This document shows positions 12,579 through 35,657 of a stretch of DNA of 40,566 nt, one piece after another. Source of the DNA: Armatimonadia bacterium (GTDB lineage: Bacteria > Armatimonadota > Zipacnadia > UBA1398); assembly GCA_014730065.1 (NCBI GenBank), contig WJIW01000117.1, positions 1 through 40,566 on the forward strand, written 5' to 3'. Each line of letters opens with the position of its first letter. The first letter of the stretch is position 1. The notes below the pieces were generated by a model. That model ran no database searches. It had not been told where the DNA came from and saw only the letters and a list, made by a program, of their open reading frames with translations. The translations under genes were made by a program, and so were the position numbers.

Positions 12579-14109
12579 CGAGCCCCGTGACCCAGTCGCC
12601 AATGACCAGCCGGGGATCGTCTGCGGCCAGGGCCCGCCCGTTCACCGTCACGTTCTCGAACACAATGTCCCGAACGGGGCTATCCGGGCCGTCAGCCATG
12701 ACGACGACATGGGGCGTCTCAGAGTGGATCACGTTGATATTCCGGAACACCACGCCAGTGATCGAGCCCCGGGGCTGTTCGCGTGGTGGCGGGTCCGATT
12801 GCTTGTAGGGGTTCTGTGGGACCGTTGGCAGGTTCATGTGCCATCCGTCCCAGTTGTTGACCACCTTGATGGGCGCGTGGCTTTCTCCGCGAACATCCTC
12901 GATGACGATGTTCTCGAAGCGGAAGTTGGAGACGTTCCCCGGTCCCTGGAGCTCCAGACCGATGGCGCCTCGGGACGTGGGCGAGTCGGTGACGTGGATC
13001 GCGGTGCAGCCCTCGAAGATCACGTTCGAGAGATCGGCGTCGGTCTCATGGCAGAGGCCAAAGGCACCGCCCACGTCGTTCCACACCACGCAGTTGCGGA
13101 ACGTGACGTTGCTTTGGGGGACCCAGACCTTGATCTCCAGAGAGTCGTCGGCGTTGTGGCTGAAACAGTTCTCGACCAAGGCGTCGGAGGTGCCTCCGAC
13201 CACGATGCCGTCGTTGTTGACGTAGTGCCCGACGATTTTGACGTTGTCGATGTGCACGCCGCGGCTGTTGACCACATTCAGCGACCATACCGAGGACTCT
13301 CGGATGATGATGCCCTCGATGCTGAGATCCTCGATCTCCTGCACGCGGATCAGGTGCCCTCGCTGAAGCTGATCCAGGGCTCGGCGACCACACAGGATCC
13401 CGCGACCCCGGATGGTTACATCGCGCTGGTAGCTGCTGGTGAACATCCCGGGCTGCTCCCAGAGCTGGAGGCCATAGAGGAGCCCCGGCCAAGGCGAGAG
13501 GTCGCCTTCGGGAGCGGGTTTCAGGTGGAGCACGGCGCCCCCGGCGACGTACACCGTCTGGCCGCTCTGGATGTCCGTTACTCCGAGCTCATGGGAGCCA
13601 GGCCCGAAGTACAGGATGCCGGGGTCATCGGGGCTCGGAGGGTCGACCTCGAGGGGGTTGGCGAACAGGTGCAGGGCATGGGTTAGGCTGCCCCCGGGTT
13701 CGATGCTAAGCTGGCAGGGCTCGTCCAAGCTGAATCGTATCTCGTCATCCTCGACCGTCGGCTCGATGTCGTGGGCGAGGGGGCGCACCACGACGGTCCG
13801 AGTGTCCAGCCCCGCCTCGGTCAGGCCCGGCAGCAGGCGGACACGGACATCGACCGACCCCTCGAAGTCGAAGTAGGCAAAGGTCAGCGGGGATACGGGT
13901 CGGCCCGCTATGGTGTGATCCGAACGGGGGTCATAGCGGTAGGACGTATAGCAGAACACGGGCTGTCCATCTATCCAGACGCGGTAGTCGGGTGATGGTG
14001 CCTCGTCCTCGGGGGCAGGGTAGGTCACGACGCGGGCCGGGCCTGTGGAGTCTTGCCCAGCCGCCGTTACCATGCCCAGGGCAAGGTGGAGAGCTACAGC
14101 GAGGGTCAT
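12568..14109 (-). CDS. Secreted right-handed beta-helix glycoside hydrolase (GH28/GH49-like)
   Basis: Signal peptide from ATG 14109 (GGGAGG 5 nt upstream), LHLFANP, YFGPGSH, VYVAGGAV, VTIRGRGIL, NNDGI...NADDSLEIK acidic motifs, and repeated 'I.FENV' beta-helix turns. 513 aa. Confidence 0.8.
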   Translation of the reverse strand: MTLAVALHLALGMVTAAGQDSTGPARVVTYPAPEDEAPSPDYRVWIDGQPVFCYTSYRYDPRSDHTIAGRPVSPLTFAYFDFEGSVDVRVRLLPGLTEAGLDTRTVVVRPLAHDIEPTVEDDEIRFSLDEPCQLSIEPGGSLTHALHLFANPLEVDPPSPDDPGILYFGPGSHELGVTDIQSGQTVYVAGGAVLHLKPAPEGDLSPWPGLLYGLQLWEQPGMFTSSYQRDVTIRGRGILCGRRALDQLQRGHLIRVQEIEDLSIEGIIIRESSVWSLNVVNSRGVHIDNVKIVGHYVNNDGIVVGGTSDALVENCFSHNADDSLEIKVWVPQSNVTFRNCVVWNDVGGAFGLCHETDADLSNVIFEGCTAIHVTDSPTSRGAIGLELQGPGNVSNFRFENIVIEDVRGESHAPIKVVNNWDGWHMNLPTVPQNPYKQSDPPPREQPRGSITGVVFRNINVIHSETPHVVVMADGPDSPVRDIVFENVTVNGRALAADDPRLVIGDWVTGLVIR

Positions 14110-19991: not shown

Positions 19992-22211
19992 TCAGCGCGA
20001 TGCCTCATCCTCATTGGTCGGCGGGAGTTCGACGCGGGTAACCTCGCCTCCTCGTACCACAATCTCATCATCGTAACTGGCCCCCTGGGGGCTGAGGACG
20101 CTGACGGCGTAGCGCCCCGGCAGTACCTCGACGAGCTCACCCGAATCCAGGGTCGCCGCGGGCTCGGGCTCCGCGCCCTCGGTCAGCCGGTACAGCCCGA
20201 TACGCGCCTGGGTTCCCAATGCCAGGGAGACCGCTCCCGTGGCTCCGAACTGCACGACTCCGTCCTCGGCCTCGCGGATCTCCAGGTCGGTGACCAGAAG
20301 CCGGGGATAGGTCCACAGATCCAGCTCGTAGGAGCCCGGCAGAATGTCCTGACCCCGGCCCGTGACGCCGCTGGCCAGGGCATCGCCGGTCACCGCGTCG
20401 ATGACGTTGTACTTGACCCTGGCGGGGTCTCCAGCGTGATTCAGCAGCCCAACGAGGAGGCGGACCAGTCGGCCCAGGGAGTGGGTGGTCACCTGCCCGG
20501 ACGTCACGTCCAACTCCAGGCTCGCATCGGGCCAGCCTGCCAAGGAAACCTCGTACCGGCCCGGGGACACGAGCACCGTGTCGCCCGTCAGGCCCGCGAT
20601 CAGCTCGTCGGGATTGTGCACCGGGCGTGCCGTCCAGGCCCACTCGACGGGCTGGCCATCGGAGCTCAGCAGCTCCACACGAATGGCGCCCTGGGCGGGT
20701 ACGTCGATCCGACGCCCTTGCCCCGGCTCCAGGCGTACCTGCATCTCCGTGGGCGGCCGGGTGTCGAGTCGGAGATCCCATGATCCGGGCGGAGCGAGCA
20801 GCGCCCTATTCGTCTCGCCGGTCAGCGGGTCGCCGCCATCGCGGCTAAGGCTGAAGGCCACGGTGGCCTCGGCCTCCGGACCCTCCAGCGTCACGTGCAG
20901 GCGAACCCAGTCGGACAGATCCACCTCGGTAAGCTCTCCGGCCACAACGCCAACGCGATCACTTCGGTACTGGGGTCCGTCGGTGCTGACGACCCGGTAA
21001 GTGCCCGGCGGAAGTGGAACCCACTGCCCCATGCGAGCCCCGCCCACGCGCTGGCTCGATCCGTCGACCTGGATCTCGATGGGATATGCCTGGCCTTCGG
21101 GCTCGGGCGGAGCGACCCGCAGCGCGCCCATCTCGCCCAGCCTCTGTACTCCGCTGGCGTACATCTCCACGGCGCGCGTCAGGTTGGGCCGGGTGAAGAC
21201 TAAAGCCCGGTACAGCCCCTCGTCCAAGGCGATGGGGCGTCCCGCAAGGATCCAGCCACGGGGACCGGGCTCGCCCGGCTCATAGAAGATAATGGGGGTG
21301 GGCGGCAGGTCGATGGGCGAGTGGATCACCGGCGTGAGGGTGAGGGCGCCTCCGACGGGGGCCAGATAGCCCCCCGCATCGACCGCGATGTCGTCGTCCC
21401 AGAGCAGCTCGACGTTGCGCCACCCATCCGCCTCCTCGGGTGACTGGTAACTCAGTGCGACGGCTCTGCCAAGGCTGGATGCGATGTCCTCGGCGGCGGC
21501 TCCAGCCCCGGCTACATCGCCTAGGGACACGACCTGCCCGCCGCTGGCCCGGGCGGCCTCGACGACCGATGGCTCCCCGCCGACCGATGCCGAAAGAGAG
21601 TGGATCACGCCGCCGGCGAAGGGCGCCAGCACCGCGGGGGCGTTCCTGGCCACATGGGATACGGGGTCCTGGCCGGCGTGCAGCACGACCATGCAGCGGG
21701 GACCGGGGGCTTCGGCCAGGGCATCGATGGCCGCCACTATGCCGTCCCGCACCCGGCCCACGGGATCGGCGAAGAGCTCCGCGACCACGCTCCGGAGCCG
21801 GTCGCCCCCTCGGGCGAATCCGACGGTCCGGACCGTCTCTCCCGCTAGCACGATGCCGATCTGGGTCTCGGGTGGCAGGCTCGAGGCAAGAGAGGCCAGG
21901 GCCGCGGCGAAGACCGCGCGCTCCTTCTCAGCCTCGGGTCCGCACTCGATGACCACGACGAGCCAGAAGGGCTCGGTCTCGCGCACCTGGATGGGAACTG
22001 GCGGGGCGTCGCCCTCCACGGCACGAGCGGCCGGGAGCTGGCCATCCTCCAGCTCACCCGGATCCACGATCACCTCGACACACGGGGGCTGGGACGAGTA
22101 GGTGGACAGGACCTCGGGAGCGACGGTCTGCGCCGTCGCCGCCCCGACGAAACAGAGACACGCCCAGGCGCCCAGGGCTGCACGTAGGATGTTGGTCGGC
22201 ACCGTTCTCAA
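19992..22211 (-). CDS. Secreted protein with degenerate vWA-like domain and about six tandem beta-sandwich repeats
   Basis: Signal peptide (…FVGAATA|Q). vWA-like segments (LVVVIECG, RDGIVAAIDAL, CMVVLHAGQD, ARASGGQ). Recurring motifs EGLY, PGTY, PGSW, PGRY, PGSY, PGRY at ~70-80 aa spacing. GGGAGG SD and TACAAT -10 just upstream. Confidence 0.65.
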   Translation of the reverse strand: MRTVPTNILRAALGAWACLCFVGAATAQTVAPEVLSTYSSQPPCVEVIVDPGELEDGQLPAARAVEGDAPPVPIQVRETEPFWLVVVIECGPEAEKERAVFAAALASLASSLPPETQIGIVLAGETVRTVGFARGGDRLRSVVAELFADPVGRVRDGIVAAIDALAEAPGPRCMVVLHAGQDPVSHVARNAPAVLAPFAGGVIHSLSASVGGEPSVVEAARASGGQVVSLGDVAGAGAAAEDIASSLGRAVALSYQSPEEADGWRNVELLWDDDIAVDAGGYLAPVGGALTLTPVIHSPIDLPPTPIIFYEPGEPGPRGWILAGRPIALDEGLYRALVFTRPNLTRAVEMYASGVQRLGEMGALRVAPPEPEGQAYPIEIQVDGSSQRVGGARMGQWVPLPPGTYRVVSTDGPQYRSDRVGVVAGELTEVDLSDWVRLHVTLEGPEAEATVAFSLSRDGGDPLTGETNRALLAPPGSWDLRLDTRPPTEMQVRLEPGQGRRIDVPAQGAIRVELLSSDGQPVEWAWTARPVHNPDELIAGLTGDTVLVSPGRYEVSLAGWPDASLELDVTSGQVTTHSLGRLVRLLVGLLNHAGDPARVKYNVIDAVTGDALASGVTGRGQDILPGSYELDLWTYPRLLVTDLEIREAEDGVVQFGATGAVSLALGTQARIGLYRLTEGAEPEPAATLDSGELVEVLPGRYAVSVLSPQGASYDDEIVVRGGEVTRVELPPTNEDEASR

Positions 22212-22501: not shown

Positions 22502-23554
22502 CTGAAAGCAGTCGTTCTCGCCGCGGGCGAGGGAACGCGGATGCGGCCTCTGACGCTTACCCGGCCGAAGGTGCTGGTCCCCGCCGCGGGCTCGCCTCTC
22601 CTCGATCACGTCTTCCGCCGCCTGGCCGTCGCGGGCGTGGACAGCGCGCTCCTGGTGACCATGTACCTGCCCGAGCAGGTCGAGTCATGGGCCCGGGCGG
22701 CCGATCGCTATGGCATCGACATCGATCTGATCCACCAGCCCCGGGACCGCTACGGCACCGGGGCAGCCACACTCACGGCCAGGGATTGGGTCGACGGATC
22801 GGCCTTCCTCATGACCTTTGGCGACGTACTTGCCTCGGAGAGCCACTATCCAGCCCTCGTCGGGCTCCACAAGCGCCATCCCGATGCGACCATCCTCTCG
22901 GCCCATCGAGAGGAGATGGTGCGAGGAGGCCTGGTGCAGATCGATGGCGATGGCATTCTGGAGGCGATCATCGAGCGTCCGTCGGCTCCCGTGCCGTCGG
23001 GCCTGATCAACGCCGGCATCTTCCTGCTGCAGCCTGGCATCTTCGACGACCTCCAAGACTTGGCGCCCTCGCCTCGGGGCGAGTACGAGCTGACGGACGT
23101 GTTCCAGAAGATGGCCGAAGAGGGCCGGGCGCCCAAAGTGCTGGAGACCGACGACTACTGGGTGAACGTGAGCGGCGGCCCCGAGATCCTCGAGGTGCAG
23201 CGCCGGGTGCTCGATGAGTGGACTTCCGCGGCCGACGGCGACGGGGTCTTCATCGAGGAGGGTGCCGAAGTCTCCGGCGATGCTGAGCTGCGCGGGCCCC
23301 TGCGAATCTCGGCGGGGGCCAAGGTCGGGGCGGCTCATATCGGACCGTACGCTTCGGTCGGCGATGGGGCCCATGTGGACGATGGATCGGCGCTCGAAGA
23401 GTGTGGCGTCCTCCCCGGCGCCCACGTCGGCAGCGATTGCCGGCTGAGGTACGCCATTATCGGCGCGGGCGCGCGCATGGCCGACCGTGCGCGCCTCTGG
23501 GGCGAGGTGGACCGCACCTCGATCCTGGCCGACGGTGAGGAGCATGGTACCTGA
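22502..23554 (+). CDS. Sugar-1-phosphate nucleotidyltransferase (NTP_transferase + short left-handed beta-helix), apparent CTG start
   Basis: The signature (M)KAVVLAAGEGTRMRPLTLTRPK needs codons from CTG 22502, and an in-frame TGA sits at 22493-95. Also GTGAA, TFGDV, INAGIF, SPRGEYELTD. Confidence 0.88.
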   Translation: MKAVVLAAGEGTRMRPLTLTRPKVLVPAAGSPLLDHVFRRLAVAGVDSALLVTMYLPEQVESWARAADRYGIDIDLIHQPRDRYGTGAATLTARDWVDGSAFLMTFGDVLASESHYPALVGLHKRHPDATILSAHREEMVRGGLVQIDGDGILEAIIERPSAPVPSGLINAGIFLLQPGIFDDLQDLAPSPRGEYELTDVFQKMAEEGRAPKVLETDDYWVNVSGGPEILEVQRRVLDEWTSAADGDGVFIEEGAEVSGDAELRGPLRISAGAKVGAAHIGPYASVGDGAHVDDGSALEECGVLPGAHVGSDCRLRYAIIGAGARMADRARLWGEVDRTSILADGEEHGT

Positions 23555-24045
23555 TGTACCGTCGGCGTCCGTCTCGCCAGCAATCGGGGGGGCACGAGCC
23601 ACGGGATTGGGCGAAGATCGATCATGTCGTCCAGCGGCTGACGGCTGTGCTGGAGACACATGCGGCCCTTTCGGAGCGCATGCTGAGAGCGGCCGAGGCC
23701 GGAGATGCCGACAGCCTGGACAGCCTGATCGACGAGGCCGGACGTGAGCTTCAGCAGCTACCGCCTCTACAGATGGAGCTGGAGACCCACTGGCCGGGAG
23801 AGCCGGAGGAGCGGGAGCGCCATCTCGAGCAGGCTCCAGGTGATGTGCGAGACCGATGCCACCGCCTGACTGAGCTCACGCGCAGGGCGGAGGATCTGGA
23901 TGGGCGGGTGGCTGCGGCCCTGGAGGCCCAGATAGGCACACTGGAAGGTCAGCAGCGTGCGGTACGGCACGAGAAGAGGACGGGATCGAAGTTCCACCGT
24001 GGCATAGATGATAGGGGCGGCGGCCTCATCGACCGCACCCGGTAA
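23554..24045 (+). CDS. Helical hypothetical protein, FlgN/FliT-like flagellar export chaperone candidate
   Basis: TGATG overlap with the upstream gene. All-helical amphipathic pattern (AEAGDADSLDSLIDE...), C-terminal GGGLIDRTR reminiscent of FlgN/FliT tails, motility context. Confidence 0.5.
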   Translation: MYRRRPSRQQSGGHEPRDWAKIDHVVQRLTAVLETHAALSERMLRAAEAGDADSLDSLIDEAGRELQQLPPLQMELETHWPGEPEERERHLEQAPGDVRDRCHRLTELTRRAEDLDGRVAAALEAQIGTLEGQQRAVRHEKRTGSKFHRGIDDRGGGLIDRTR

Positions 24046-24150
24046 GAGGCGGCGTACGTAGCCACCGGCTAGGGCTTGATCGAGCGTGAAGGGAACGACG
24101 CGACCTCGGTAGCGAGGTCCGGATTCCACACACGGAAGGGGTGGACGGCG

Positions 24151-24753
24151 ATGCAGTTCAACGAGATCCAGCTGGATGCCTTACGCGAGATCGGCAACAT
24201 CGGGGCCGGCAACGCCGCCACGGCCTTATCCGAGCTGATCCAGACGAAGGTGGACATCACCGTCCCCGAGGTGCGGGTGATCGAGACCACCAAGATCCCG
24301 GACATGGTGGGAGGGCCGGAGCGGGAGGTGGTAGCGTGCCTCTTCGGTCTGTCGGGTGGGCTCGAGGGAGCGGCGATGTACGTGTTCCCATTGGAGGAGG
24401 CGAAGTACCTCTCCGACCGCATGCTCCAGCAGCCCGAAGGCACGACCACGGAGATGGGCGAGATGGAGCAGTCGGTGATCGGCGAGGTGGGCAACATCCT
24501 GACAGGCTCCTACATGACCGCCATGCAGGGCTTCACAGGCATCGCGTCCAACCTCAGCCCCCCGGCGGTCACGGTATCGCAGGCCATGGTGATCTTCAGC
24601 GAGGCATCGGTGATCGCCAGCACCTTCGCTGACTGGACCATCTGGGTCGAGACGGACTTCATCGTGGAGGAAGGTCACCTCAAGGCTTACCTGTTCCTAT
24701 TGGCCAGCCCCGAGGCCATGGAGCAGGTGCTCACCTCCCTTGGGGTTGGTTGA
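24151..24753 (+). CDS. cheC: Chemotaxis phosphatase CheC
   Basis: Two CheC motifs: DALREIGNIGAGNAATALS and SVIGEVGNILTGSY. Start ATG 24151 follows GGAAGGGG. Confidence 0.93.
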   Translation: MQFNEIQLDALREIGNIGAGNAATALSELIQTKVDITVPEVRVIETTKIPDMVGGPEREVVACLFGLSGGLEGAAMYVFPLEEAKYLSDRMLQQPEGTTTEMGEMEQSVIGEVGNILTGSYMTAMQGFTGIASNLSPPAVTVSQAMVIFSEASVIASTFADWTIWVETDFIVEEGHLKAYLFLLASPEAMEQVLTSLGVG

Positions 24754-25250
24754 CGATGGGCTCAACGGTCGCGGTGGGGATGTCCGAGGTCAAGGTATCG
24801 GCACGAGCGGGGGACACCTTGGTTGCCTTGGGACTAGGATCCTGTATAGGGGTGTGTCTCTACGACCGTAGAGCGAAGGTTGCGGCTATGGTTCACGTGA
24901 TGCTGCCGGAGAGCAATGGCCGGGGCCAGAGTCCGGGCAAATTCGCCGACACGGGAGTGCCGCTGCTGGTGGAGACGATCGAGAAGGCGGGCGGCAGCAA
25001 GAAGGACTGCCTCTGCGCTATCGGGGGCGGCGCGGAGGTCTTCTCGTTCAGCTCATCGACGCCGGGCTTGGCCATCGGGAAGCGCAATGGCGAGGCGGTG
25101 AAGGCAGCGCTCAAGACTGCCGGGCTGAGGATCATGGCCGAGGACCTGGGTGGCAACGTGGGACGCACCGTATCCCTGGACGTGGCGACGGGCGTCGTCA
25201 AAGTTCGTCCGGTAGGCGGACAAGAGCGTGAACTTGCCAAATTGGGCTAA
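24750..25250 (+). CDS. cheD: Chemoreceptor glutamine deamidase CheD
   Basis: LGLGSCIGVCLYD, HVMLP, GKFADTG, GGAEVF, IGKRN, EDLGGNVGRT. Start is TTG 24750 or ATG 24756. Confidence 0.94.
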   Translation: MTMGSTVAVGMSEVKVSARAGDTLVALGLGSCIGVCLYDRRAKVAAMVHVMLPESNGRGQSPGKFADTGVPLLVETIEKAGGSKKDCLCAIGGGAEVFSFSSSTPGLAIGKRNGEAVKAALKTAGLRIMAEDLGGNVGRTVSLDVATGVVKVRPVGGQERELAKLG

Positions 25251-25341
25251 TGTTCCGGCGAATCGTTGGCATAACCAGACCAGTAGCATCATATTCCCCA
25301 GGGCGCGCAGAGCGATGCGCCCGAAGGGACGGCGATAAGAC

Positions 25342-25830
25342 ATGTCCGCACCCAAACTGAAGAACTGCTCCCGATGCCGAAACGCCTTCATGGCGGTGCC
25401 CGGTCAGCGCATCTGCCCCAACTGCGTGCGGCAGGAGGAGGAGGTCTTCCTGGAGGTCAAGGAGTTCCTTCGGGACAACCCCGGCTCGTCCATGAAGGAG
25501 GTGGCCGATGCCACGGGGGCTGCCGCCGATGTGGTGATGGGATTCCTCCGCTCGGGCCGTCTGGATGCCAAGCTCGCGCCCAAGGACGCTGGGCTGAGCT
25601 GCGCATCGTGCGGGACCAGCATCTCCTCGGGCCGGCTCTGCGCCAAGTGTGAGGAGAAGACCACCAGCCAGCTCGGCGGTGGCGGGGCCCCCCGCAAGGA
25701 GCCGAAGGAGGAGCCTTCCCGCGGCCCGGGCTACCGGAAGACCAGTACCGACAGCACGCGCAAGACGGCGGGATCGGGTACGACCGAGGTCCGCAGCGGG
25801 TTCGTGGATTACAAGCGCGGGAGGTCCTAG
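25342..25830 (+). CDS. Flagellar operon zinc-finger protein, YvyF/TIGR03826-like
   Basis: NCSRCR...ICPNC...EEEVFLEVKEFLRDNP...EVADATG...FLRSGRL...CASCGTSISSGRLCAKC: four CxxC pairs flanking an HTH-like core. Confidence 0.8.
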   Translation: MSAPKLKNCSRCRNAFMAVPGQRICPNCVRQEEEVFLEVKEFLRDNPGSSMKEVADATGAAADVVMGFLRSGRLDAKLAPKDAGLSCASCGTSISSGRLCAKCEEKTTSQLGGGGAPRKEPKEEPSRGPGYRKTSTDSTRKTAGSGTTEVRSGFVDYKRGRS

Positions 25831-25892
25831 TGGTGCTCCCGGTCGAACCAGACGAAGACGCCAGACACCGCGCAGTCCGAGGATGATGCACT

Positions 25893-26753
25893 GTGGCTGA
25901 GATGCTCACGGCCGAGGAAGTCGCGGCACGAGTAAGAGACTTGCCAGCCCTCCCGACCGTGGTCACGGAGGTGCTCCGGGTTACCCGGGATCCCGACAGC
26001 TCGGTGTTCGACCTTACCGAGGTGCTGGCCCGAGACCAGGCCCTGACCGCCAAGGTCTTGAGGCTGGCCAACTCGGCCCTGTTCGGCTTCCCCCGGCGCA
26101 TCGCAACCTTGTCCGATGCCGTCGTGCTGCTGGGCTTCCACACGATCAAGAGCTTGGCCATCGCCGGCTCGGCATTCAGCGTGATGGATCGGGCGGTAGA
26201 GGGGTACGGACTGGAGCGCGGGTGGATGTGGCAACACGGTATCGCCGCGGGGGCCGCTGCCAGGTTTCTGGCTAAGAAATGGCGACCCGCACTGGCCGAG
26301 GAGGCCTTTATCGGCGGACTCCTCCACGATCTGGGCAAGATCGTCCTGGACTCCTACGTGGGTGAGGCCTTCGACGAGATCATCAAGAAGGTGCGGAGGG
26401 AGAACAAGCCCTTCGCGAGCGCTGAACGCGACATCCTGGGCTTCGACCATGCGGCGGTGGGCGCGCTGGTCGCCGAGGCCTGGGCGCTTCCCGGCGACCT
26501 GGTCGCCGCGGTGAGATACCACCACTCGCCGTCGGAGGCGACGGAAGACACGGCACTGGTGGGCTTGGCGCACCTTGGGAACATCGTTGCCCTCTCGACG
26601 GGCTTTGGGGTTGGAGCCGACGGCTTGGCCGCACCCCTGGATGGCGATGTTCTGGCTCAGCTCGGCCTGGGGGTTGGACACGTGGAGGAGGCCATCGCCC
26701 AGATGCCCGACGCCCTGGCCGACTCCGAGCAGCTCCTCGAGCTGGAACGCTAG
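25893..26753 (+). CDS. HDOD domain protein
   Basis: LPALPTVV, DQALTAKVLRLANSA, AVVLLG, GLLHDLGK, DHAAVG..AEAWALP, YHHSP. Confidence 0.92.
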   Translation: MAEMLTAEEVAARVRDLPALPTVVTEVLRVTRDPDSSVFDLTEVLARDQALTAKVLRLANSALFGFPRRIATLSDAVVLLGFHTIKSLAIAGSAFSVMDRAVEGYGLERGWMWQHGIAAGAAARFLAKKWRPALAEEAFIGGLLHDLGKIVLDSYVGEAFDEIIKKVRRENKPFASAERDILGFDHAAVGALVAEAWALPGDLVAAVRYHHSPSEATEDTALVGLAHLGNIVALSTGFGVGADGLAAPLDGDVLAQLGLGVGHVEEAIAQMPDALADSEQLLELER

Positions 26754-26812
26754 CGCCGGGGGCCGCCTCGGGCGGCGAGCCCCACGACGAGATACCTGTT
26801 GAGGTAAACGCT

Positions 26813-27904
26813 ATGGGTCGGATCCGGGCTCTGATCGTCGATGATTCCGCCTTCATGCGGAAGATGGTCGGGGACATACTTTCACGGAGTGACAAGATCG
26901 AGGTCGTGGGGACGGCTCGAAACGGTCAGGAGGCACTCGACAAGCTCGAGGCCCTCGCACCCCATGTCATCACCCTCGATGTGGAGATGCCTGTCATGGA
27001 CGGCATTGAGACCCTCCGGCGGGTCATGGAAGTCCGCCCGACCCCCATCGTGATGCTCTCCAGTCTGACCGAGGAGGGGGCGGAAGTCACGCTCCGGGCT
27101 CTACACATGGGTGCGGTCGATTTCATACACAAGCCGTCGGGGGCCATCTCCCTGGACATCGAGAAGGTCTCCGACGACATCATCTCCACCGTGGAGGCGG
27201 CCGCTGGGTCCAATATGAGCAGTCTGGCTCGCCGGCCGCTGGCGGGGCCCAAGCCCGTGTCACCCCCGCCTCCGGCGGCTCCGGCTGCGCCAAGGCCCGC
27301 GCCCCATGCGGATGGGACGGGTCATCGAGCCGTGGTCGTGATCGGCACATCCACGGGTGGACCCCGCGCCCTTCAGGAGGTCATACCGCGGCTGCCAGCC
27401 GATCTGGAGGCGCCGGTGGTCGTTGTCCAGCACATGCCGCCGAAGTTCACCAAGTCGCTGGCCGAGCGCCTTGACATGCTCAGCGCCGTGGAGGTGCGTG
27501 AGGCCAGGGATGGGGATCCGATCCGCGCCGGCACGGTTTTGCTGGCGCCGGGCGGTCGCCACATGAGGATCGGTGATGGACACAAGATCGTGTTGAGCGA
27601 TGAGCCTCCCCTGTGGGGGGTGCGGCCCGCTGCGGACCTGCTCATCGAGTCGGTGGCCCAGCGCTACGGCGCGGGGGCCGTCGGCGTGATCATGACCGGA
27701 ATGGGCCACGACGGCGCCAGGGCCATGCAGTACCTCAGGGAGCACGGGGGATCCACCATCGCCGAAAGCGAGGAGACGTGCGTCATATACGGGATGCCCC
27801 GAGCCGTCGTGGAAGCGGGGGCGGCGGACGAAGTCGTGCCGCTGCAGAGAATTGCCGAGCGCATTGTGCGTCTCGTCAGAGAGCGGGCCGCCAAGGTCCG
27901 GTAG
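26813..27904 (+). CDS. cheB: Chemotaxis response regulator methylesterase CheB
   Basis: REC domain (VDDS, LDVEMPVMDG, KPSG), Pro-rich linker, and catalytic GTSTGGP / QHMP / TGMGHDGA. Confidence 0.97.
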   Translation: MGRIRALIVDDSAFMRKMVGDILSRSDKIEVVGTARNGQEALDKLEALAPHVITLDVEMPVMDGIETLRRVMEVRPTPIVMLSSLTEEGAEVTLRALHMGAVDFIHKPSGAISLDIEKVSDDIISTVEAAAGSNMSSLARRPLAGPKPVSPPPPAAPAAPRPAPHADGTGHRAVVVIGTSTGGPRALQEVIPRLPADLEAPVVVVQHMPPKFTKSLAERLDMLSAVEVREARDGDPIRAGTVLLAPGGRHMRIGDGHKIVLSDEPPLWGVRPAADLLIESVAQRYGAGAVGVIMTGMGHDGARAMQYLREHGGSTIAESEETCVIYGMPRAVVEAGAADEVVPLQRIAERIVRLVRERAAKVR

Positions 27905-27916
27905 GAGCGTGACGCA

Positions 27917-28729
27917 GTGGCCAGTCCGAATCCGCCAGCTACGCCCAAGGAGGACGCCGAGTTTGCGTCTTTCTGTCGGCGCGTCTATACGCTAACGGGC
28001 ATCGATCTAGCCAGCTACAAGTCAAACCAGATGCGGCGCCGGATCAAGTCCATGGCTGCCCGGGACGGTGCCGCCGGCTTCGAGGAGTTCGCGGGGCTGC
28101 TCGAGAGCGACCCGGAGAAGCTCAACGCCTTCCTCGATAAGGTAACCATCAACGTATCGGAGCTTTTCCGGAACCCCGAGAAGTTCGACCAGCTCCGCGA
28201 TGACTTCCTGGGGCCCATGGCGCGCCAGAACCAGGCCCTCAAGATCTGGTCGGCGGGATGCTCCTATGGCGCCGAGATCTACTCCGTCGCCATGATCCTC
28301 GCCCAGCTCGGCTCCGGACGACGGGACAAGCTCCTGGCGACGGACATCGACGCCCGCATCCTCGAGAAGGCTCGGGCGGGGGAGTTCACCAACCAGGATA
28401 TGAAGAACGTGTCCGACACGCTACGGCGCCAGTACTTCAGCCAGAAGGCCCCGGACGTGTGGGCCATCAGCGACGACATCAAGCGCCGGGTGGAGTTCCG
28501 GCGTCACGACCTCCTGCGCGACCGGTTCGACCGGGGGTTCAATCTAATCCTGTGCCGGAATGTGGTTATTTACTTTACCGACGGGGCTAAGGACAAACTG
28601 TACAAACACTTCTACGAGTCACTGGCTCCAGGCGGTATCCTCTTCGTTGGTGGCACCGAGAGAATCATGGGCGCTAAGGAGATTGGCTTCGAGGTGCCCA
28701 AGACGTTCTTCTACCAGCGGCCCGGGTAG
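27917..28729 (+). CDS. cheR: Chemotaxis methyltransferase CheR
   Basis: TINVSELFRNP, KIWSAGCSYGAEIYS, ATDID, ILCRNVVIYF, LFVGGTE, FFYQR. Confidence 0.96.
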   Translation: MASPNPPATPKEDAEFASFCRRVYTLTGIDLASYKSNQMRRRIKSMAARDGAAGFEEFAGLLESDPEKLNAFLDKVTINVSELFRNPEKFDQLRDDFLGPMARQNQALKIWSAGCSYGAEIYSVAMILAQLGSGRRDKLLATDIDARILEKARAGEFTNQDMKNVSDTLRRQYFSQKAPDVWAISDDIKRRVEFRRHDLLRDRFDRGFNLILCRNVVIYFTDGAKDKLYKHFYESLAPGGILFVGGTERIMGAKEIGFEVPKTFFYQRPG

Positions 28730-28812
28730 CGGGGCCAGGCAGGACGACGGCGACCGGGTCTTGAAACATAGAGACTCGGGACACCGTTCGCCCTAGCGGG
28801 CCCCAAGAGGGC

Positions 28813-28821
28813 TGATATGAT
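28813..28821 (+). promoter_or_regulatory. Candidate extended -10 promoter upstream of cheY
   Basis: TGATATGAT (TGn-TATGAT) lies 30 nt before TTG 28851, with the GAAGGGAGG SD in between. Confidence 0.4.
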
Positions 28822-28850
28822 CGAACGTGGTGAAGGGAGGCAGGTGTCCA

Positions 28851-29213
28851 TTGGCCCAGATTCTGATCGTCGACGACGCCATGTTCATGCGAGTGACGTT
28901 GCGGAACATGCTCACTAAGGAAGGCCATGAGATCTGCGGGGAGGCTGAGAACGGCGAAGAAGCGGTGGCGAAGTACCACGAGCTGAAGCCCGACGTGGTG
29001 ACCATGGATATCACCATGCCCAAGATGGACGGCATTGCCGCGGTGAAGGAGATACTCTCCACCGACCCCGATGCCAAGATCATCATGTGCACGGCCATGG
29101 GCCAGAAGAACATGGTTCTCGAGGCGATTCAGGCGGGGGCGAAGGATTTCATCGTCAAGCCCTTCCAGCCCGAGCGCGTTACCGAGGGCATCCAGAAGGT
29201 TCTGGGCGAGTAG
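28851..29213 (+). CDS. cheY: Chemotaxis response regulator CheY (Bacillus-type)
   Basis: ILIVDDAMFMR, PDVVTMDITMPKMDG, MCTAMGQ, GAKDFIVKPFQ. TTG start at 28851 gives 120 aa. Confidence 0.95.
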   Translation: MAQILIVDDAMFMRVTLRNMLTKEGHEICGEAENGEEAVAKYHELKPDVVTMDITMPKMDGIAAVKEILSTDPDAKIIMCTAMGQKNMVLEAIQAGAKDFIVKPFQPERVTEGIQKVLGE

Positions 29214-29282
29214 TGGCCGTGGGCTCGTATTCGGGGCGTCTTCGCATCGAGCCGAGCCTGGGCCGGAGGCGATTGGCGGGCC

Positions 29283-30011
29283 ATGACCCTGGATGAGTGC
29301 CGGAGGATTCTGGAGCTGGAGGGTCGGCTCGAGGTTGCCGACCTCAAGCGAGCCAAGCGGCGCCTCCTGATCCTCTACCATCCCGACCAGAATCCCCAAC
29401 GCCGGCAGTGGGCTGATGAGCGGACCCGCCGCGTGCTACTGGCCTATGACCTGCTCATGGCTCACCTGGGGTCGGGCGGGGCGGCGCCGTCGCTCCAGCC
29501 CGGCAGGAGAGCCCGCGGCGGCGGATTCGCTACCGTCTCCGAGCGCGGCCCCAAGCCGACCCGGCCCCGCCCGCGGGAGCCCGAGCATCGGGACCTGAGC
29601 TACCTGCTGGTCCGGGCCTCGGGCCAGTTGCTGGGTCTGCCTCTGGCGTCGGTGGTTCAGGTGATGCCCCTCAGCGCGGAGTCGGTTCAGGCCACGGGTG
29701 TGGCCAAAGGCCTGGGGTGGGCCGGGACGCTCCTCTACCGCCAAGACCGCATCCCGCTGGTGGATCTGGGCGTCGTCATGGGGCTGGACGCGGAAGACCT
29801 GGAGGAGTGCAAGCACTACGTGGTGGTCCGCTCCGGATCGGGCAGTGTGGCGGTGGCCGTCGAGGAGGTCAGTGAGCTTGTAACCGTGAACGCCACGGCA
29901 ATTGAGCCGGCTGAGGCGGTCTTCGCCGGCCTGGGTAGCCATACGAAGGGGTTCTTCCGCTACGAGCAGACGTACGCGGTAATCCCCGATCTCGAAGCCC
30001 TGCTGGGCTGA
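29283..30011 (+). CDS. J-domain (DnaJ-type, HPD intact) fused to a CheW-like domain
   Basis: Residues ~1-60: CRRILEL...DLKRAKRRLLILYHPDQNP...ERTRRVLLAYDLL. Then a Gly/Arg/Pro linker. Residues ~105-242: YLLVRASGQLLGLPLASVVQV...GTLLYRQDRIPLVDLG...VVVRSGSGSVAVAVEEVSEL...IPDLEALL. Confidence 0.82.
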   Translation: MTLDECRRILELEGRLEVADLKRAKRRLLILYHPDQNPQRRQWADERTRRVLLAYDLLMAHLGSGGAAPSLQPGRRARGGGFATVSERGPKPTRPRPREPEHRDLSYLLVRASGQLLGLPLASVVQVMPLSAESVQATGVAKGLGWAGTLLYRQDRIPLVDLGVVMGLDAEDLEECKHYVVVRSGSGSVAVAVEEVSELVTVNATAIEPAEAVFAGLGSHTKGFFRYEQTYAVIPDLEALLG

Positions 30012-30072: not shown

Positions 30073-30525
30073 GTGTCGCAAGCTGGCCACGAGTCGAAGG
30101 TGCGCTTCGAGTTGTCTCTGCCGTCGGTAGCGGGGTCGTGCCGCAAGGCGCGGCTGGTAGCGTCGGAGATCTGTAAGGACGCCTCCCTATCGCCCACCAG
30201 CGAGTACCGCATACTCCTGGCGGTCGATGAGCTGTGCCAGAACGTGATCCACTACGCATACGGCGGTCCCACCGACCAGCAGAACTTCCAGATCGTGTTC
30301 GAGTATGTACCGGGCTGTGTGTGGGCGGAGGTGCGGGACGAAGGGTGCGGGTTCGATGAGGCCCTTCTGGAGCCCATCGAGGCCGGCAGCCAGGATCTCG
30401 AGAGCCTCATGTACCTGGAGCAGCGCGGGCTCGCGCTGGTGGGAGCCCTCATGGATTCCCGGGAGATCCAGTCGGGTCCCGGTGGAGGCACCACGGTACG
30501 GATCAGCCTGAACCAGCCCACATAG
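30073..30525 (+). CDS. Anti-sigma factor / Ser kinase, RsbW/SpoIIAB-type (HATPase_c_2)
   Basis: LAVDELCQNVIHYAY (N box), VRDEGCGFD (G1), RGLALVGALMD, GGGTTVRI. Confidence 0.85.
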   Translation: MSQAGHESKVRFELSLPSVAGSCRKARLVASEICKDASLSPTSEYRILLAVDELCQNVIHYAYGGPTDQQNFQIVFEYVPGCVWAEVRDEGCGFDEALLEPIEAGSQDLESLMYLEQRGLALVGALMDSREIQSGPGGGTTVRISLNQPT

Positions 30526-30586: not shown

Positions 30587-30928
30587 ATGGAGTTCAAGCA
30601 GCGACAACCGGAAGGCAAGCCGGGCGTGGTTATCGTGGAGGTCGCGGGCGAGGTAGATTCGGCATCGGCCGAGCAGTTTCGGGAGCAGCTCGTCTCCCTC
30701 ATCGAGGGACCCACGAAGCACCTCATCGTGAATCTGGCCGACCTGACGTACATCAACAGCAGCGGTCTGGGGGCCCTCGTCGCCGGCTACAAGCGAGTGC
30801 GCAGCCTGGATGGCACCCTCAAGCTCTGCAACGTCCGCGGCTCCATCGCCGAGGTCATGAAGCTGATCCGGCTGGACAAGATCATCGACATCTACGACAG
30901 CGAGGAAGAGGCCCTGGCATCCCTCTAG
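30587..30928 (+). CDS. STAS domain anti-anti-sigma factor, RsbV/SpoIIAA-type
   Basis: VAGEVDSASA, VNLADLTYINSSGLGAL (phosphoacceptor Ser region), IYDSEEEAL. 113 aa. Confidence 0.92.
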   Translation: MEFKQRQPEGKPGVVIVEVAGEVDSASAEQFREQLVSLIEGPTKHLIVNLADLTYINSSGLGALVAGYKRVRSLDGTLKLCNVRGSIAEVMKLIRLDKIIDIYDSEEEALASL

Positions 30929-30965: not shown

Positions 30966-31478
30966 ATGCGGCCCTTGACCCAGCCCGCCCTTCCAGAGGA
31001 GAGCCCCCTCGGCCATCGGGAGCAGCTCGTCACCATCCGTATCGGGGCCGAGGAGTTCGCCTTGCCTGTGGGGCAAGCCCGGGAGATCGTCCCTTACCGG
31101 CGCGTCACGCGCGTACCCGGAGCCGCCTACCAGTTCGCGGGGGTCATGAACCTGCGGGGCGACGTGATCCCTGTCGTCGAGCCCAAGCGGCGCATGGGCG
31201 TGCCCGAGCGCGAACCCGACGAGGAGACATGCATCATCGTGCTCGATGCCGGTGATCATGACATCGGCCTGATGGTGGACGCCGTGCGGGAGGTCGTCGC
31301 CATCGACCCGGACTGTGTCCAGCCGCCGGCGGGGGCCATGGCCGAGGTGCCGTACTTGGTGGGCGTCGTCGAGCTCGCCGACCGCCTCGTGGGCGTGGTG
31401 GATCCCGAGGCCATGATCCAGCCCTCCGGCGTGCCCGCGAGCGATGCCGATGGCTCCACGGCTCGGGAGAGCCCATAG
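30966..31478 (+). CDS. cheW: Chemotaxis coupling protein CheW
   Basis: EEFALPV, TRVPGA, GVMNLRGDVIPVV, IGLMVDAVREV. Confidence 0.93.
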   Translation: MRPLTQPALPEESPLGHREQLVTIRIGAEEFALPVGQAREIVPYRRVTRVPGAAYQFAGVMNLRGDVIPVVEPKRRMGVPEREPDEETCIIVLDAGDHDIGLMVDAVREVVAIDPDCVQPPAGAMAEVPYLVGVVELADRLVGVVDPEAMIQPSGVPASDADGSTARESP

Positions 31479-31499: not shown

Positions 31500-33254
31500 G
31501 TGGATACCGCTGACTACATGGGAGTGTATGCCGACGAATCCGATGAGCACCTGCGGGCTCTCTCGGACAACATTCTGCGCCTGGAGGCCGAGCCCGAGGA
31601 CCTATCCGTTGTGGCCGACATCTTCCGCTCATCACACACGCTCAAGGGCATGTCGGCGACCATGGGCTTCGACGAGATCGCCGATCTCACCCACCGCATG
31701 GAGTCGGTGCTCGACCAGGTTCGGCACGGGCGGATGCCCGTCACCCGGGGTCTGATCGATGCGCTGTTCCTCTGCCTGGACGCTCTTCAGGAGATGGTGG
31801 ACCAGGCGGTGGAGGGCCAGGCCATCAGCACCCAAACGGCCCCCCTGCTCGCCCGGCTCGAAGAGCTGGAGGCCGGTACTCGAGGGGGCGGAGCCCGGAT
31901 CCCCCTGCGCCACCCAGCGCGCTCCCCGGCTCAGGGCCAGGAAGGCGTCCACGTCGTGGATCCTCTCGCCGACTCCCAGCCGGGCCAGCGAGCCCAGGCA
32001 GCCACCTACGAGCCTCGGGAGACGCGGGAGCCCGACTCCGGAGCGGTCCCCGCGACGACCGAAGCAGCCGTGCCGGCACCGAGGTCCGCGGATAGCAAGG
32101 TGCAGCGCACCGTGCGAGTGGACATCCACAAGCTCGATGATCTCATGAACCTGACGGGCGAGCTAGTGATCGCGCGCACCCAGCTCGCCGAGCTGACCAG
32201 CCGGCATGACGTGCCGGGCCTCTCCGAGACCGTGGCCGGCATCGGCCGGATCTCCAGTGATCTTCAGCGGGTGGTGATGCGGGCCCGGATGATGCCCATC
32301 GAGCAGGTGTTCAGCCGCTTCCCCCGCATGGTGCGGGACTTGGCCCGAGCCGCGGGCAAGGAGGTGGACTTCCGGATCACGGGCGCCGAGACCGAGATCG
32401 ACCGAACGGTGATCGACGAGATCGGCGAGCCCCTCGTGCATCTCCTACGGAACGCCGTGGACCACGGCATCGAGCCCCCCGAGACTCGGCGCGAGCATGG
32501 GAAGCCCCTTCCCGCCCACGTGTACCTGGATGCCCGCCAAGAGGGCGAGAGCGTCTACGTGACGGTGGAGGACGATGGTGGCGGTATCGACCCCGACCGG
32601 GTGAAGGCGAAGGCTGTGCACCAGGGCCTCATCACCCAGGGGGAAGCCGATTCGATAACAGACGCCGAGGCCGTGCATCTACTCTTCCGCTCGGGGTTCA
32701 CCACGGTCGATCACGCGACGGAGGTGTCGGGCAGGGGGGTGGGCATGGACGTGGTTCGGAGCAAGATCCAGGCCCTGGGTGGGCGGGTCGAGGTGGACTC
32801 GGCCGTGGGCGAGGGCACGACCTTCACCATCGAGCTACCTCTGACCCTGGCCATCGTCGAGGCCCTCCTCGTCGGTGTGGGCGAGGAGCAGTACGCCATC
32901 CCCCTCAGCGCCATCGAGGAGACCCACGCCATCGCCCCCAGCGCGCTCACGACCGTGCACCAGGAGCGGGTCATCTCGCTGAGGGGATCGATGCTGCCCC
33001 TGGCCTTCTTGCGCGAGATCCTGGAGGTGCCGGGCGATCCCCCGGTGGATCCTCTAGAGATACCCATCGTCGTGGTCAAGCAGGGCCAGCGACGCGTTGG
33101 GCTGGTCGTGGACCGGCTGATCCGGCAACAGGAGATCGTCATCAAGCCCCTGTCGGGGGCCCTGGGGGTGCTGCCCCACGTAACGGGAGCGGCCATCCTG
33201 GGTGACGGGTCCCTGGCGCTTATACTGGCCGCCGAGGACGTGGCCGCGGCCTAG
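31500..33254 (+). CDS. cheA: Chemotaxis histidine kinase CheA (P1-P3-P4-P5; no P2)
   Basis: IFRSSHTLKGMS (P1 His), TVRVDIHKLDDLMNLTGELVI (P3), HLLRNAVDHGIE, DDGGGID, SGRGVGMDVV (P4), C-terminal CheW-like P5. GTG start after GGGAGGTGA. Confidence 0.96.
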   Translation: MDTADYMGVYADESDEHLRALSDNILRLEAEPEDLSVVADIFRSSHTLKGMSATMGFDEIADLTHRMESVLDQVRHGRMPVTRGLIDALFLCLDALQEMVDQAVEGQAISTQTAPLLARLEELEAGTRGGGARIPLRHPARSPAQGQEGVHVVDPLADSQPGQRAQAATYEPRETREPDSGAVPATTEAAVPAPRSADSKVQRTVRVDIHKLDDLMNLTGELVIARTQLAELTSRHDVPGLSETVAGIGRISSDLQRVVMRARMMPIEQVFSRFPRMVRDLARAAGKEVDFRITGAETEIDRTVIDEIGEPLVHLLRNAVDHGIEPPETRREHGKPLPAHVYLDARQEGESVYVTVEDDGGGIDPDRVKAKAVHQGLITQGEADSITDAEAVHLLFRSGFTTVDHATEVSGRGVGMDVVRSKIQALGGRVEVDSAVGEGTTFTIELPLTLAIVEALLVGVGEEQYAIPLSAIEETHAIAPSALTTVHQERVISLRGSMLPLAFLREILEVPGDPPVDPLEIPIVVVKQGQRRVGLVVDRLIRQQEIVIKPLSGALGVLPHVTGAAILGDGSLALILAAEDVAAA

Positions 33255-34725: not shown

Positions 34726-34935
34726 ATGTACAGTGTGAAGCTCGACAGTGCGCTCTTCGCACCACCGAGAAGTCGGCTCGACTCGCCCGACCTCGCCTAC
34801 GCCGCCAAGCTGGCCGAGGTGCTGGACCACGAGGAATGCCGCCGTGACCCTGAGCTGAGGAAGTGGGCCGCCGCCTGCGTGCTCGCAGCCGCGCCCTTCC
34901 CGACTTGCCTGACCATCGGAGGCGATGCGCAGTGA
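34726..34935 (+). CDS. Small hypothetical protein (69 aa) in the cobalamin-riboswitch leader
   Basis: AAGGGG upstream, strongly GC3-biased codons, and a stop that overlaps the next start (GTGA at 34932-35). Confidence 0.5.
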
Positions 34936-35657
34936 GCCGCATCCGCCGAAGCCCGCGGGGCTTCACCCTCATCGAGCTGCTGGTGGTCATCGCCATCATC
35001 GCCATCCTGGCGGCCATCCTGTTCCCCGTCTTCGCCAAGGCGCGGGAGAAGGCCCGCCAGACGAGCTGCCTCTCGAACCTGCGGCAGCTCGGAACGGCGT
35101 GGAGCATGTACGCTCAAGACTACGACGAGATGGCGTGCATCTCGTACTACTTCACGCCCGACTTCAGCATGGAGTACGCCTGGGACTACACCATCGACTG
35201 GAATGCGGGGATCACAGATCTGGGCCTCCTGGGTCCATACACCAAGAACTCCCAGATCAACCAGTGCCCGAGCTTCCAGGCCGAGACCTGGGGCCGGCCC
35301 CACACGGGCTACGCCTATAACATGCGCATCGGCGGCGATGTCTTCGCATGGCCCCCCACCAACCCCGTGTCCATCGGGGCGATCCAGAAGCCCACGGAGA
35401 CGGCTCTGCTGGCCGACAGCGCATACTGGAGCACATGGCCCTCTCCGGGCCTGTCGGGGAACAACTACCTCCGCAGCCCGAGCGACCCGTCGTACGCCTT
35501 CGTGGGGCCCAACGTACACTTCCGCCACAACCAGGCGGCCAACGTGACCTGGGCCGACGGCCACGCCAAGGCCGCTACCCAGGCCTTCAACATCAGCGCC
35601 GAGGACGACAGCCTGGGCGACCTGTCGCCCGATGATGAGCTTTACGACCTGAACTAG
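34932..35657 (+). CDS. Prepilin-type N-terminal cleavage/methylation protein with DUF1559-like region and H-X9-DG motif
   Basis: GTG 34932 with GGAGG SD. SPRG|[39 protein letters not shown]; C-terminal [16 protein letters not shown]. 241 aa. Confidence 0.9.

Follow-up and report, generated by a model that had tools for sequence, protein, structure and literature searches.

The stretch of DNA analysed here (the window) covers 40,566 nucleotides, contig WJIW01000117.1 of assembly GCA_014730065.1, and comes from a metagenome assembly of an Armatimonadia bacterium (5.65 Mb, 669 contigs, 67% GC; genome G000 in what follows). It contains a flagellar chemotaxis (che) operon, and within this operon lies a gene in which an N-terminal J-domain, a linker and a CheW-like domain are joined in one stop-free open reading frame (ORF) of 242 codons (242 aa plus stop). 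The genes between positions 24076 and 33254 are all on the + strand, separated by short gaps, in the order CheC/CheX-like, CheD, Zn-ribbon, HDOD, CheB, CheR, CheY, fusion, HATPase_c_2, STAS, CheW and CheA. The fusion gene has a GC content at third codon positions of 0.84, on par with its neighbours, a GGAGG 13 nt ahead of its ATG, and an encoded N-terminus (M-[TS]-x-[DE]-E-C-R) that is kept among relatives. An earlier note, made from the sequence alone, had placed the gene between cheY and an RsbW/RsbV pair with a canonical cheW also present, and the Pfam matches of the neighbouring genes agree. No RNA runs holding the stretch were listed.

A J-domain joined to a CheW-like domain

Pfam DnaJ (PF00226) matches residues 9–59 of the window protein with 25.0 bits (E 2e-5; cut-off 27.8), and a six-frame scan gave the same domain 27.6 bits ("28 with its neighbours"). 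A phmmer search against solved structures returned J-domains only (best 2lgw_A, E 3e-5); NCBIfam gave weak matches to DnaJ models, all far below their cut-offs, and its match to TopJ (E 0.36) is not significant. The call is secured at the level of the family, because all ten distant fusion relatives that were scanned exceed the DnaJ cut-off (10/10; 31.9–55.3 bits) and because a profile built from 15 family members picks up J-domains of known structure (DNAJB2, E 4.5e-19; E. coli DnaJ in its complex with DnaK, 5nro_B, E 3.5e-14). An AlphaFold model built on the 15-member alignment has a mean predicted local distance difference test (pLDDT) of 84 and places helices at residues 3–9, 18–31 and 38–64, the latter two flanking the HPD tripeptide, with a pLDDT of 90–97 over the J-domain. 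Foldseek superposes this part on 5nro_B with a root mean square deviation of 1.6 Å over 53 columns (template modelling score, TM, by target 0.73), and many further J-domains match.

The intact HPD and the basic helix II (KRAKRRL, residues 22–28) that the earlier note had picked out are both present, in a J fold that the profile and the model support. HPD is invariant in all 15 aligned family members and in 8/8 sequences of alignment A3, and helix II is basic in most of the 15. The sole invariant columns of the 15-sequence alignment are L10, H33, P34, D35, P38, A54 and Y55, all of them in the J-domain. Since HPD is retained at identities to the window protein of 17–51%, with helix II mostly basic, selection acts on the coupling to Hsp70. 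The linker, also expected to be flexible, has a pLDDT below 50 at residues 65–88 and varies in length and sequence among relatives. At E ≤ 0.1 Pfam finds DnaJ and CheW only, with no G/F region, zinc finger or DnaJ C-terminal domains; with HPD and the J fold in place and the class A/B domains lacking, the protein would by its architecture be a class C J-domain protein.

The second domain is matched by Pfam CheW (PF01584) over residues 107–241 and model positions 2–134 of 138 (64.5 bits, cut-off 23.5; E 9.9e-18), and the 15-member profile matches the solved CheW 2qdl_A with an E of 6.3e-23. AlphaFold models a beta-rich domain at residues 104–241 with a pLDDT above 90 over most of its length, for which Foldseek returned 6s1k_C (E 1.1e-12; TM by target 0.79), 2ch4_Y (0.82) and 8c5v_E (0.82). 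The ESM Atlas gave no usable feature matches, and its structure rows were CheW-family clusters only. For a comparison of residues, 19 fusion domains were aligned with 14 canonical CheWs, a small set drawn mostly from one phylum, and E. coli numbering was mapped through an alignment of the window's canonical CheW to 2ho9_A. The hydrophobic core of CheW is retained. The equivalent of E. coli G57, a position which we take to be among the conserved Gly residues of CheW, is kept (Gly148 in the window protein; Gly in 17/19 fusions) and directly precedes the segment TLLYRQDRIPLVD (residues 149–161). Here the Pro-x-x-Asp of the E. coli I55–V68 segment is kept as well, with P158 in 15 of the 19 fusions and the D161 position occupied by Asp in 14 and Asn in 5. 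The residue preceding the R62-equivalent Arg is aromatic in 18/19 fusions and Leu in 12/14 canonical CheWs. A full but divergent CheW-like domain, as the earlier note described it, is what the Pfam score, the fold matches and the relaxed coupling residues (discussed below) amount to.

That the two halves were joined by a chimeric assembly, or by a wrongly called ORF that merges two separate genes, is a thought that so fragmented a source assembly invites, and it can be practically dismissed. The fusion recurs in one stop-free frame in two genomes of the same family (G002 and G003) and one of another family of the same order (G005), and it is found in four Pfam-checked metagenome loci and ten further representatives of 50%-identity clusters. 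Single contigs from two public runs of different studies (X1, 29002-29754; X2, 28800-29722) extend from cheY over the J-domain and linker to where the CheW domain starts. Their sequence is 95–99% alike to that of the window, from which they differ by 18–19 letters, though the window's own sample may be among the best holders; no indels or joints occur in them, and an assembly chimera is therefore excluded. Of 21 strain differences listed inside the ORF 12 are synonymous and 9 non-synonymous, four of these nine falling in linker codons 63–79, and HPD is unchanged in the strain-variant contigs. The outcomes that the earlier note had said would count against the fusion (no CheW match, absence from relatives, a read-level artefact) were looked at, and none held.

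Family members and their phylogeny

A word-indexed search of 5.8 billion proteins returned five clusters at E ≤ 0.001 among 2808 candidates, namely the query and four others at 45–51% identity and 100% coverage. All five bear precomputed PF00226 + PF01584, so the architecture is already annotated in databases, and one member is named by its source as a "chemotaxis signal transduction protein". Among 41 related genomes, full-length matches were found in G000, G002 and G003, and in G005 both halves lie in one open frame of 297 aa at 31% identity. A five-member profile searched against 1.84 billion cluster representatives gave 5443 matches at E ≤ 0.001, 108 at ≤ 1e-10 and 4 at ≤ 1e-30. Of the 150 matches listed, 20 were scanned with Pfam and 128 proteins lay outside the scan. 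Ten of those scanned had been picked for one or two matched stretches spanning most of their 225–266 aa, and these are the ten distant relatives mentioned above, all carrying both domains (CheW 42.4–87.2 bits). Both domains together occur in none of the other ten, of which nine are J-proteins whose partner domain is a different one or missing and one (P0008) is a triple-CheW protein of 542 aa, with three CheW domains and 342 bits in total. Most of the 128 listed proteins outside the scan are about 500 aa long with three matched stretches, like this one. A metagenome scan with the distant members gave nine loci, four of them Pfam-confirmed fusions of widely varying GC content (L109, 37%; L111, 41%; L112, 55%; L113, 53%).

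Within the order, the four genomes with CheW domains (G000 with 8 matches, G002 with 10, G003 with 5 and G005 with 4) all carry the fusion. G001, from the same genus as the window, and G004, both 98% complete, have no CheW-domain matches, and no fusion was found in them. Further phyla were searched as samples, with the 9–11 best candidates per genome scored. For taxa of the lower-GC subclade, 301 genomes of the phylum of G309 (Treponema) gave no two-domain match and one match with CheW only. With profile A2 there was likewise no two-domain match in 251 genomes of the phylum of G311 (Myxococcales), in 251 of that of G310 (Planctomycetaceae) or in 301 of that of G312 (Anaerotignum), the last giving two matches with CheW only.

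A tree of 41 CheW-fold domains, with P5 domains as outgroup, places all 19 fusion domains on one side of a branch with a support of 46, which allows a single origin but does not prove it. They fall into two supported groups, one of 8 high-GC members (99) and one of the 11 others (89), and 13 of the 14 canonical CheWs group separately (90); as judged from this tree, the CheW-like domain of the fusion is a lineage of its own apart from canonical CheWs. The J-domain tree recovers the subclades of the CheW tree (P0019 + L111, P0023 + L112, P0038 + L113, P0052 + P0152, P0064/P0100/P0120/L109 and the 8-member high-GC clade), and both halves have therefore diverged together. By this comparison of trees the fusion is old and has been inherited as one unit.

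Two proteins with a J-domain and a beta-propeller nest in the high-GC J-domain group of the fusion with a support of 95. One is P0040 and the other a 429-aa open frame of the window's own genome (G000:C472:2587-2781(-); PQQ_2 / Beta-prop_ACSF4), whose J-domain shares 49% identity with the fusion's over residues 1–65. G001, which has no che genes, also has a J-domain match of the beta-propeller-protein type. From its nested position the beta-propeller fusion seems to have arisen later, by copying of the J cassette to a different targeting domain. Such a protein may be a second targeted DnaK adaptor, and the copied cassette hints at a small toolkit of such adaptors in Armatimonadia.

Gene neighbourhood and candidate partners

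There is a genetic link between the fusion gene and flagellar chemotaxis. G002 and G003 share the arrangement CheC-CheD-HDOD-CheB-CheR-CheY-fusion-STAS, and a Zn-ribbon match between CheD and HDOD was obtained in G003 alone; the STAS gene downstream of the fusion is 64–65% identical in these two genomes, and the RsbW-like gene is not beside it. In G005 the operon reads CheC-CheD-Zn-ribbon-HDOD-CheB-CheR-CheY-(CheC/CheX-like)-fusion and is followed directly by FlgB, FlgC, FliE, FliF and FliG. CheY followed by the fusion is also the order at L013, L014 (the G002 locus) and L110, with one CheC/CheX-like gene in between at L097 (the G005 locus). L109, at 37% GC, has the fusion followed by CheC-CheD-CheB-CheR-HDOD-FliM, the HDOD gene (11602-12579) closing the CheC-CheD-CheB-CheR block, and upstream of the fusion a 79-codon ORF and, further off, a lysyl-tRNA synthetase gene; the partners found in the window recur here in rearranged order, and the organism is a very different one. 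At L113 a CheW gene lies just downstream of the fusion, and at L111 FlhA lies two genes upstream. Overall, che genes (cheY, cheC, cheW) are the immediate neighbours in 6/9 loci, the window included. The earlier claim of a conserved fusion with intact HPD tied to che genes is thus borne out by the recurrence in relatives and metagenome loci and by the invariant HPD.

Table 1. Coordinates of the fusion gene, its parts and its neighbours in the window.
Feature	Position	Strand	Basis
J-CheW fusion gene	29283-30011	+	ORF, translation, Pfam DnaJ + CheW
J-domain, residues 1–64	29283-29474	+	Pfam, phmmer, family profile, AlphaFold, Foldseek
HPD tripeptide, residues 33–35	29379-29387	+	translation, family alignment
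Disordered Gly/Pro/Arg-rich linker, residues 65–103	29475-29591	+	pLDDT, variability among relatives
CheW-like domain, residues 104–242	29592-30008	+	Pfam, Foldseek, profile search
cheY, directly upstream of the fusion	28827-29213	+	Response_reg 113.7 bits
cheC, cheD, Zn-ribbon, HDOD, cheB, cheR (upstream, same operon)	24076-28729	+	Pfam
162-aa protein between cheD and the HDOD gene	25342-25830	+	weak zinc-ribbon matches only
HDOD-domain protein gene of the che operon	25893-26753	+	Pfam 207 bits
RsbW-like kinase gene (HATPase_c_2)	30073-30525	+	Pfam 66.5 bits
STAS gene (RsbV-like)	30587-30928	+	Pfam 86.2 bits
Canonical cheW, possible docking partner	30966-31478	+	Pfam 123.9 bits
cheA, possible docking partner	31500-33254	+	Pfam

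Some further features of the window stand apart from the fusion. The 162-aa Zn-ribbon-like protein is kept at the same position in G003 (34% identity) and G005 (37%), and the RsbW-like and STAS genes form a partner-switching module inside the flagellar chemotaxis operon, between the fusion gene and cheW. Pfam returned nothing at E ≤ 0.001 for an ORF of 739 aa at 19992-22211(-) or for one of 163 aa at 23554-24045(+), which lies immediately ahead of cheC. The translation of 34863-35657(+), a protein of 264 aa, has an N-terminus resembling a prepilin-type cleavage/methylation signal, after which comes a hydrophobic helix.

Besides its CheW-domain matches, the window's genome contains 12 MCP signalling domains, 5 J-domains and one full-length Hsp70, a frame of 632 aa on C24, so that a single DnaK is available as a partner; DnaK was also found in G001, G002, G004 and G005. 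The CheA encoded in the window (584 aa) has the Hpt, dimerisation, ATPase and CheW domains in Pfam and no P2 domain. The best identity of its P5 domain among 12 relatives is 40–42%, equal to that with its own paralogue on C464, and the only CheA found in G003 and G005 is of the C464 type and is encoded elsewhere in the genome. Because the window CheA P5 has no close orthologue and the CheA of G003 and G005 is of the C464 type, a conserved partner, if it is a CheA, is more likely a C464-type kinase. The adjacent CheW-CheA-RsbW-like genes appear to be particular to the window genome. A complex prediction of residues 98–242 (alignment A2) with the C464-type CheA P5 (alignment A4) scored 0.00, which speaks neither for nor against binding. 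No HSP90-family (HtpG) match was found in G000, G001, G002, G003 or G005, in a search whose control matched 4/14 reference genomes; since the non-chemotactic G001 lacks a match too, its absence does not track the fusion specifically.

A putative adaptor between DnaK and the chemosensory complex

J-domains bind ATP-bound Hsp70 through their HPD loop and basic helix II and trigger hydrolysis, upon which Hsp70 clamps a substrate presented nearby. In class C J-proteins specificity comes from an unrelated targeting domain, as stated in the available part of a J-protein census (PMC10410713). We consider the fusion to be probably, at slightly better than even odds (about 0.55), a class C J-domain protein with CheW-like targeting that brings the cell's single DnaK to complexes of CheA, CheW and receptors for their assembly, quality control or turnover. 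The CheW-like domain would dock on a partner that normally binds CheW folds, whether CheA-P5, CheW or a receptor tip, and the flexible linker of about 40 residues would give the J-domain the reach to DnaK. The HPD loop would then trigger ATP hydrolysis and DnaK would clamp a nearby segment of the chemosensory complex. Most likely, CheA and the core signalling unit would in this way be assembled, checked for quality or turned over with chaperone help, much as in E. coli a DnaJ/CbpA-dependent step comes before HtpG acts on CheA, but here with a J-protein dedicated to the task.

A bolder form of the idea, suggested by analogy, is a bacterial counterpart of auxilin, in which the CheW-like domain would insert into or cap CheA-P5/CheW rings and the J-domain would let DnaK extract subunits. 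We regard it as possible, on the doubtful side. It would imply ATP-driven remodelling, repair or dismantling of very stable chemoreceptor arrays, and it could couple stress to taxis, DnaK availability falling under proteotoxic stress.

Several observations weigh against the proposal of a DnaK adaptor docked on the chemosensory complex, and one group concerns the residues by which CheW couples its partners. In E. coli CheW, Arg62 and Glu38 are highly conserved and joined by a salt bridge through which the receptor and kinase sites are coupled, Gly63 is conserved, I55–V68 is the proposed CheA-binding site and E38A disrupts the interaction with the receptor (available part of PMC3828127). In the fusions the R62 equivalent is Arg in 9/19 (13/14 canonical CheWs; Arg153 in the window protein), the G63 equivalent is Gly in 7/19 (14/14; Gln154) and the E38 equivalent is Glu in 8/19 (13/14; Gln126). 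The Pro of the T-x-x-P segment, present in all 14 canonical CheWs, occurs in none of the 19 fusions, where the segment holds an insertion of 2–6 residues. The window protein thus has neither the E38–R62 salt-bridge pair nor Gly63. With these equivalents relaxed, canonical docking is not assured, and the docking mode may differ from that of canonical CheW. Having kept the CheW fold and a good part of the segment proposed to bind the kinase, but not the coupling signature, the CheW-like domain looks like a docking module rather than a signal coupler.

The remaining observations of this kind are more scattered. The DnaJ call for the single window protein is just under Pfam's curated threshold, and its match spans model positions 5–54 of 63, with no separate helix IV in the AlphaFold model; helix IV is therefore absent or merged. 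A two-domain match was found in 2/301 sampled genomes of the phylum (G000 and G003; E ≤ 1e-18, 9 candidates per genome scored, with G002 and G005 outside the sample), so the family is rare. At L112 the fusion sits between rubrerythrin and methyltransferase genes with no adjoining che gene, the operon in G002, G003 and G005 lacks CheA and CheW, and DnaK was not found at E ≤ 1e-50 in G003, a genome that is 91% complete.

The same features can be read in other ways. If DnaK occupancy of the J-domain and linker in the signalling complex reported the amount of free DnaK, proteotoxic or heat stress would, by titrating DnaK away, alter kinase coupling and swimming bias (thermo- or stress-taxis), and the protein would be a stress-input adaptor. 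The architecture is equally compatible with this, the coupling residues differ from canonical CheW as might suit a modulator, and the RsbW-like/STAS partner-switching pair directly follows in the window, with STAS after the fusion in G002 and G003 too. We nevertheless hold it to be unlikely. Nothing speaks specifically in its favour; G002, G003, G005 and L109 have no RsbW-like gene next to the fusion, and G005 and L109 gave no STAS match there either. A J-domain acts as a catalytic trigger, and we know of no case of one serving as a sensor of Hsp70 occupancy.

Somewhat more unlikely still is that the CheW-like domain serves only as a landmark, positioning the protein at the polar chemoreceptor and flagellar region while the clients of DnaK belong to the flagellar switch or export apparatus. 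Flagellar genes do follow or neighbour the fusion (FlgB–FliG in G005, FliM in L109, FlhA in L111), and FliN, in E. coli a client of HtpG, likewise needs DnaJ/CbpA for that interaction (available part of PMC3708813), but it is che rather than flagellar structural genes that adjoin the fusion in 6/9 loci, the exceptions being G005 (L097), with flgB directly after the fusion, and L111 and L112, where no che gene adjoins it. It is quite improbable, finally, that the protein is an extra CheW paralogue acting as a coupling or ring protein, with a J-like head that serves as a helical spacer or interaction module without Hsp70 function. The sub-threshold DnaJ score, the unmatched helix IV and the several CheW paralogues per genome in the order would suit such a protein; the invariant HPD and mostly basic helix II over 15 members down to 17% identity would not, nor would the DnaJ scores of the distant members, 10/10 above the cut-off.

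The assembly, repair and removal of chemoreceptor arrays are poorly understood; the lattices are remarkably stable, and evidence for chaperones is thin, its main example being E. coli CheA (available part of PMC3708813). If the adaptor reading is true, the fusion would be a genetically defined handle on array upkeep that names DnaK and suggests a CheW-fold docking site, with HPD to QPD as a clean separation-of-function allele. For the chaperone field it would add a client-specific bacterial class C J-protein, few of which are understood.

Comparison with known systems

The earlier note did not recall this fusion as described, and a literature search likewise found no published description of a J-domain/CheW fusion. 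DnaJ, J domain, chaperone and Hsp70 are unmentioned in the text of two surveys of CheW-like domains, whose supplementary tables may list the architecture; in these surveys 16/111 Pfam architectures hold about 94% of the domains and rare architectures were excluded. CheW and chemotaxis are unmentioned in the available main text of the J-protein census (PMC10410713), whose supplementary tables may also list it.

With canonical CheW (PF01584) the fusion protein shares its fold, its family and its encoding in a che operon; it adds an N-terminal J-domain and a linker, and it belongs to a separate lineage from 13/14 sampled CheWs. A tie between the Hsp70 J-protein system and the chemotaxis kinase also exists in E. 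coli, where CheA behaves like a client of HtpG and a dnaJ cbpA double mutant no longer shows the interaction between the two, and a role in receptor-cluster assembly is proposed by the authors (Press et al. 2013, PMC3708813, available part). There, general J-proteins act upstream of Hsp90, whereas in the window the che operon itself contributes a dedicated J-protein, and a search of five genomes turned up no HSP90-family gene. In Synechococcus elongatus DnaK1 binds PixG, a regulator of phototaxis, and PilB, and is needed for phototaxis (PMC13710413), and a DnaK system links type IV pili to polysaccharide secretion (PMC9239167), each according to the available part of the source. As far as these parts go, cyanobacterial DnaK1-DnaJ1 resembles the proposal made here in that Hsp70 components are tied physically or genetically to a chemotaxis-like pathway, but separate DnaK/DnaJ paralogues act on PixG, PilB or pilus systems and no CheW-J fusion is mentioned.

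The fusion shares with CheV its design, in which a CheW-fold docking module is combined with another domain of regulatory or effector type, and its place among che genes. In CheV the CheW-like domain is fused to a C-terminal receiver domain; the domain added here is an N-terminal J-domain, not a phospho-accepting receiver, and no Response_reg match was found in the protein. A listing of CheW-like domain fusions likewise mentions receiver domains (Vass et al. 2022). Compared with class C J-proteins, the fusion similarly joins an HPD J-domain to an unrelated targeting domain, without G/F, zinc-finger and C-terminal domains. J-domains are combined with client targeting in this way in auxilin (clathrin), HscB (IscU) and DjlA. 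Auxilin is given as an example of class C in the available part of PMC10410713, and the targeting domain of the fusion, a CheW fold, is not among the architectures named in that main text. We rate the fusion as a class C J-protein whose targeting domain is new and, equally, as a CheW fusion in the style of CheV that has gained a new effector domain.

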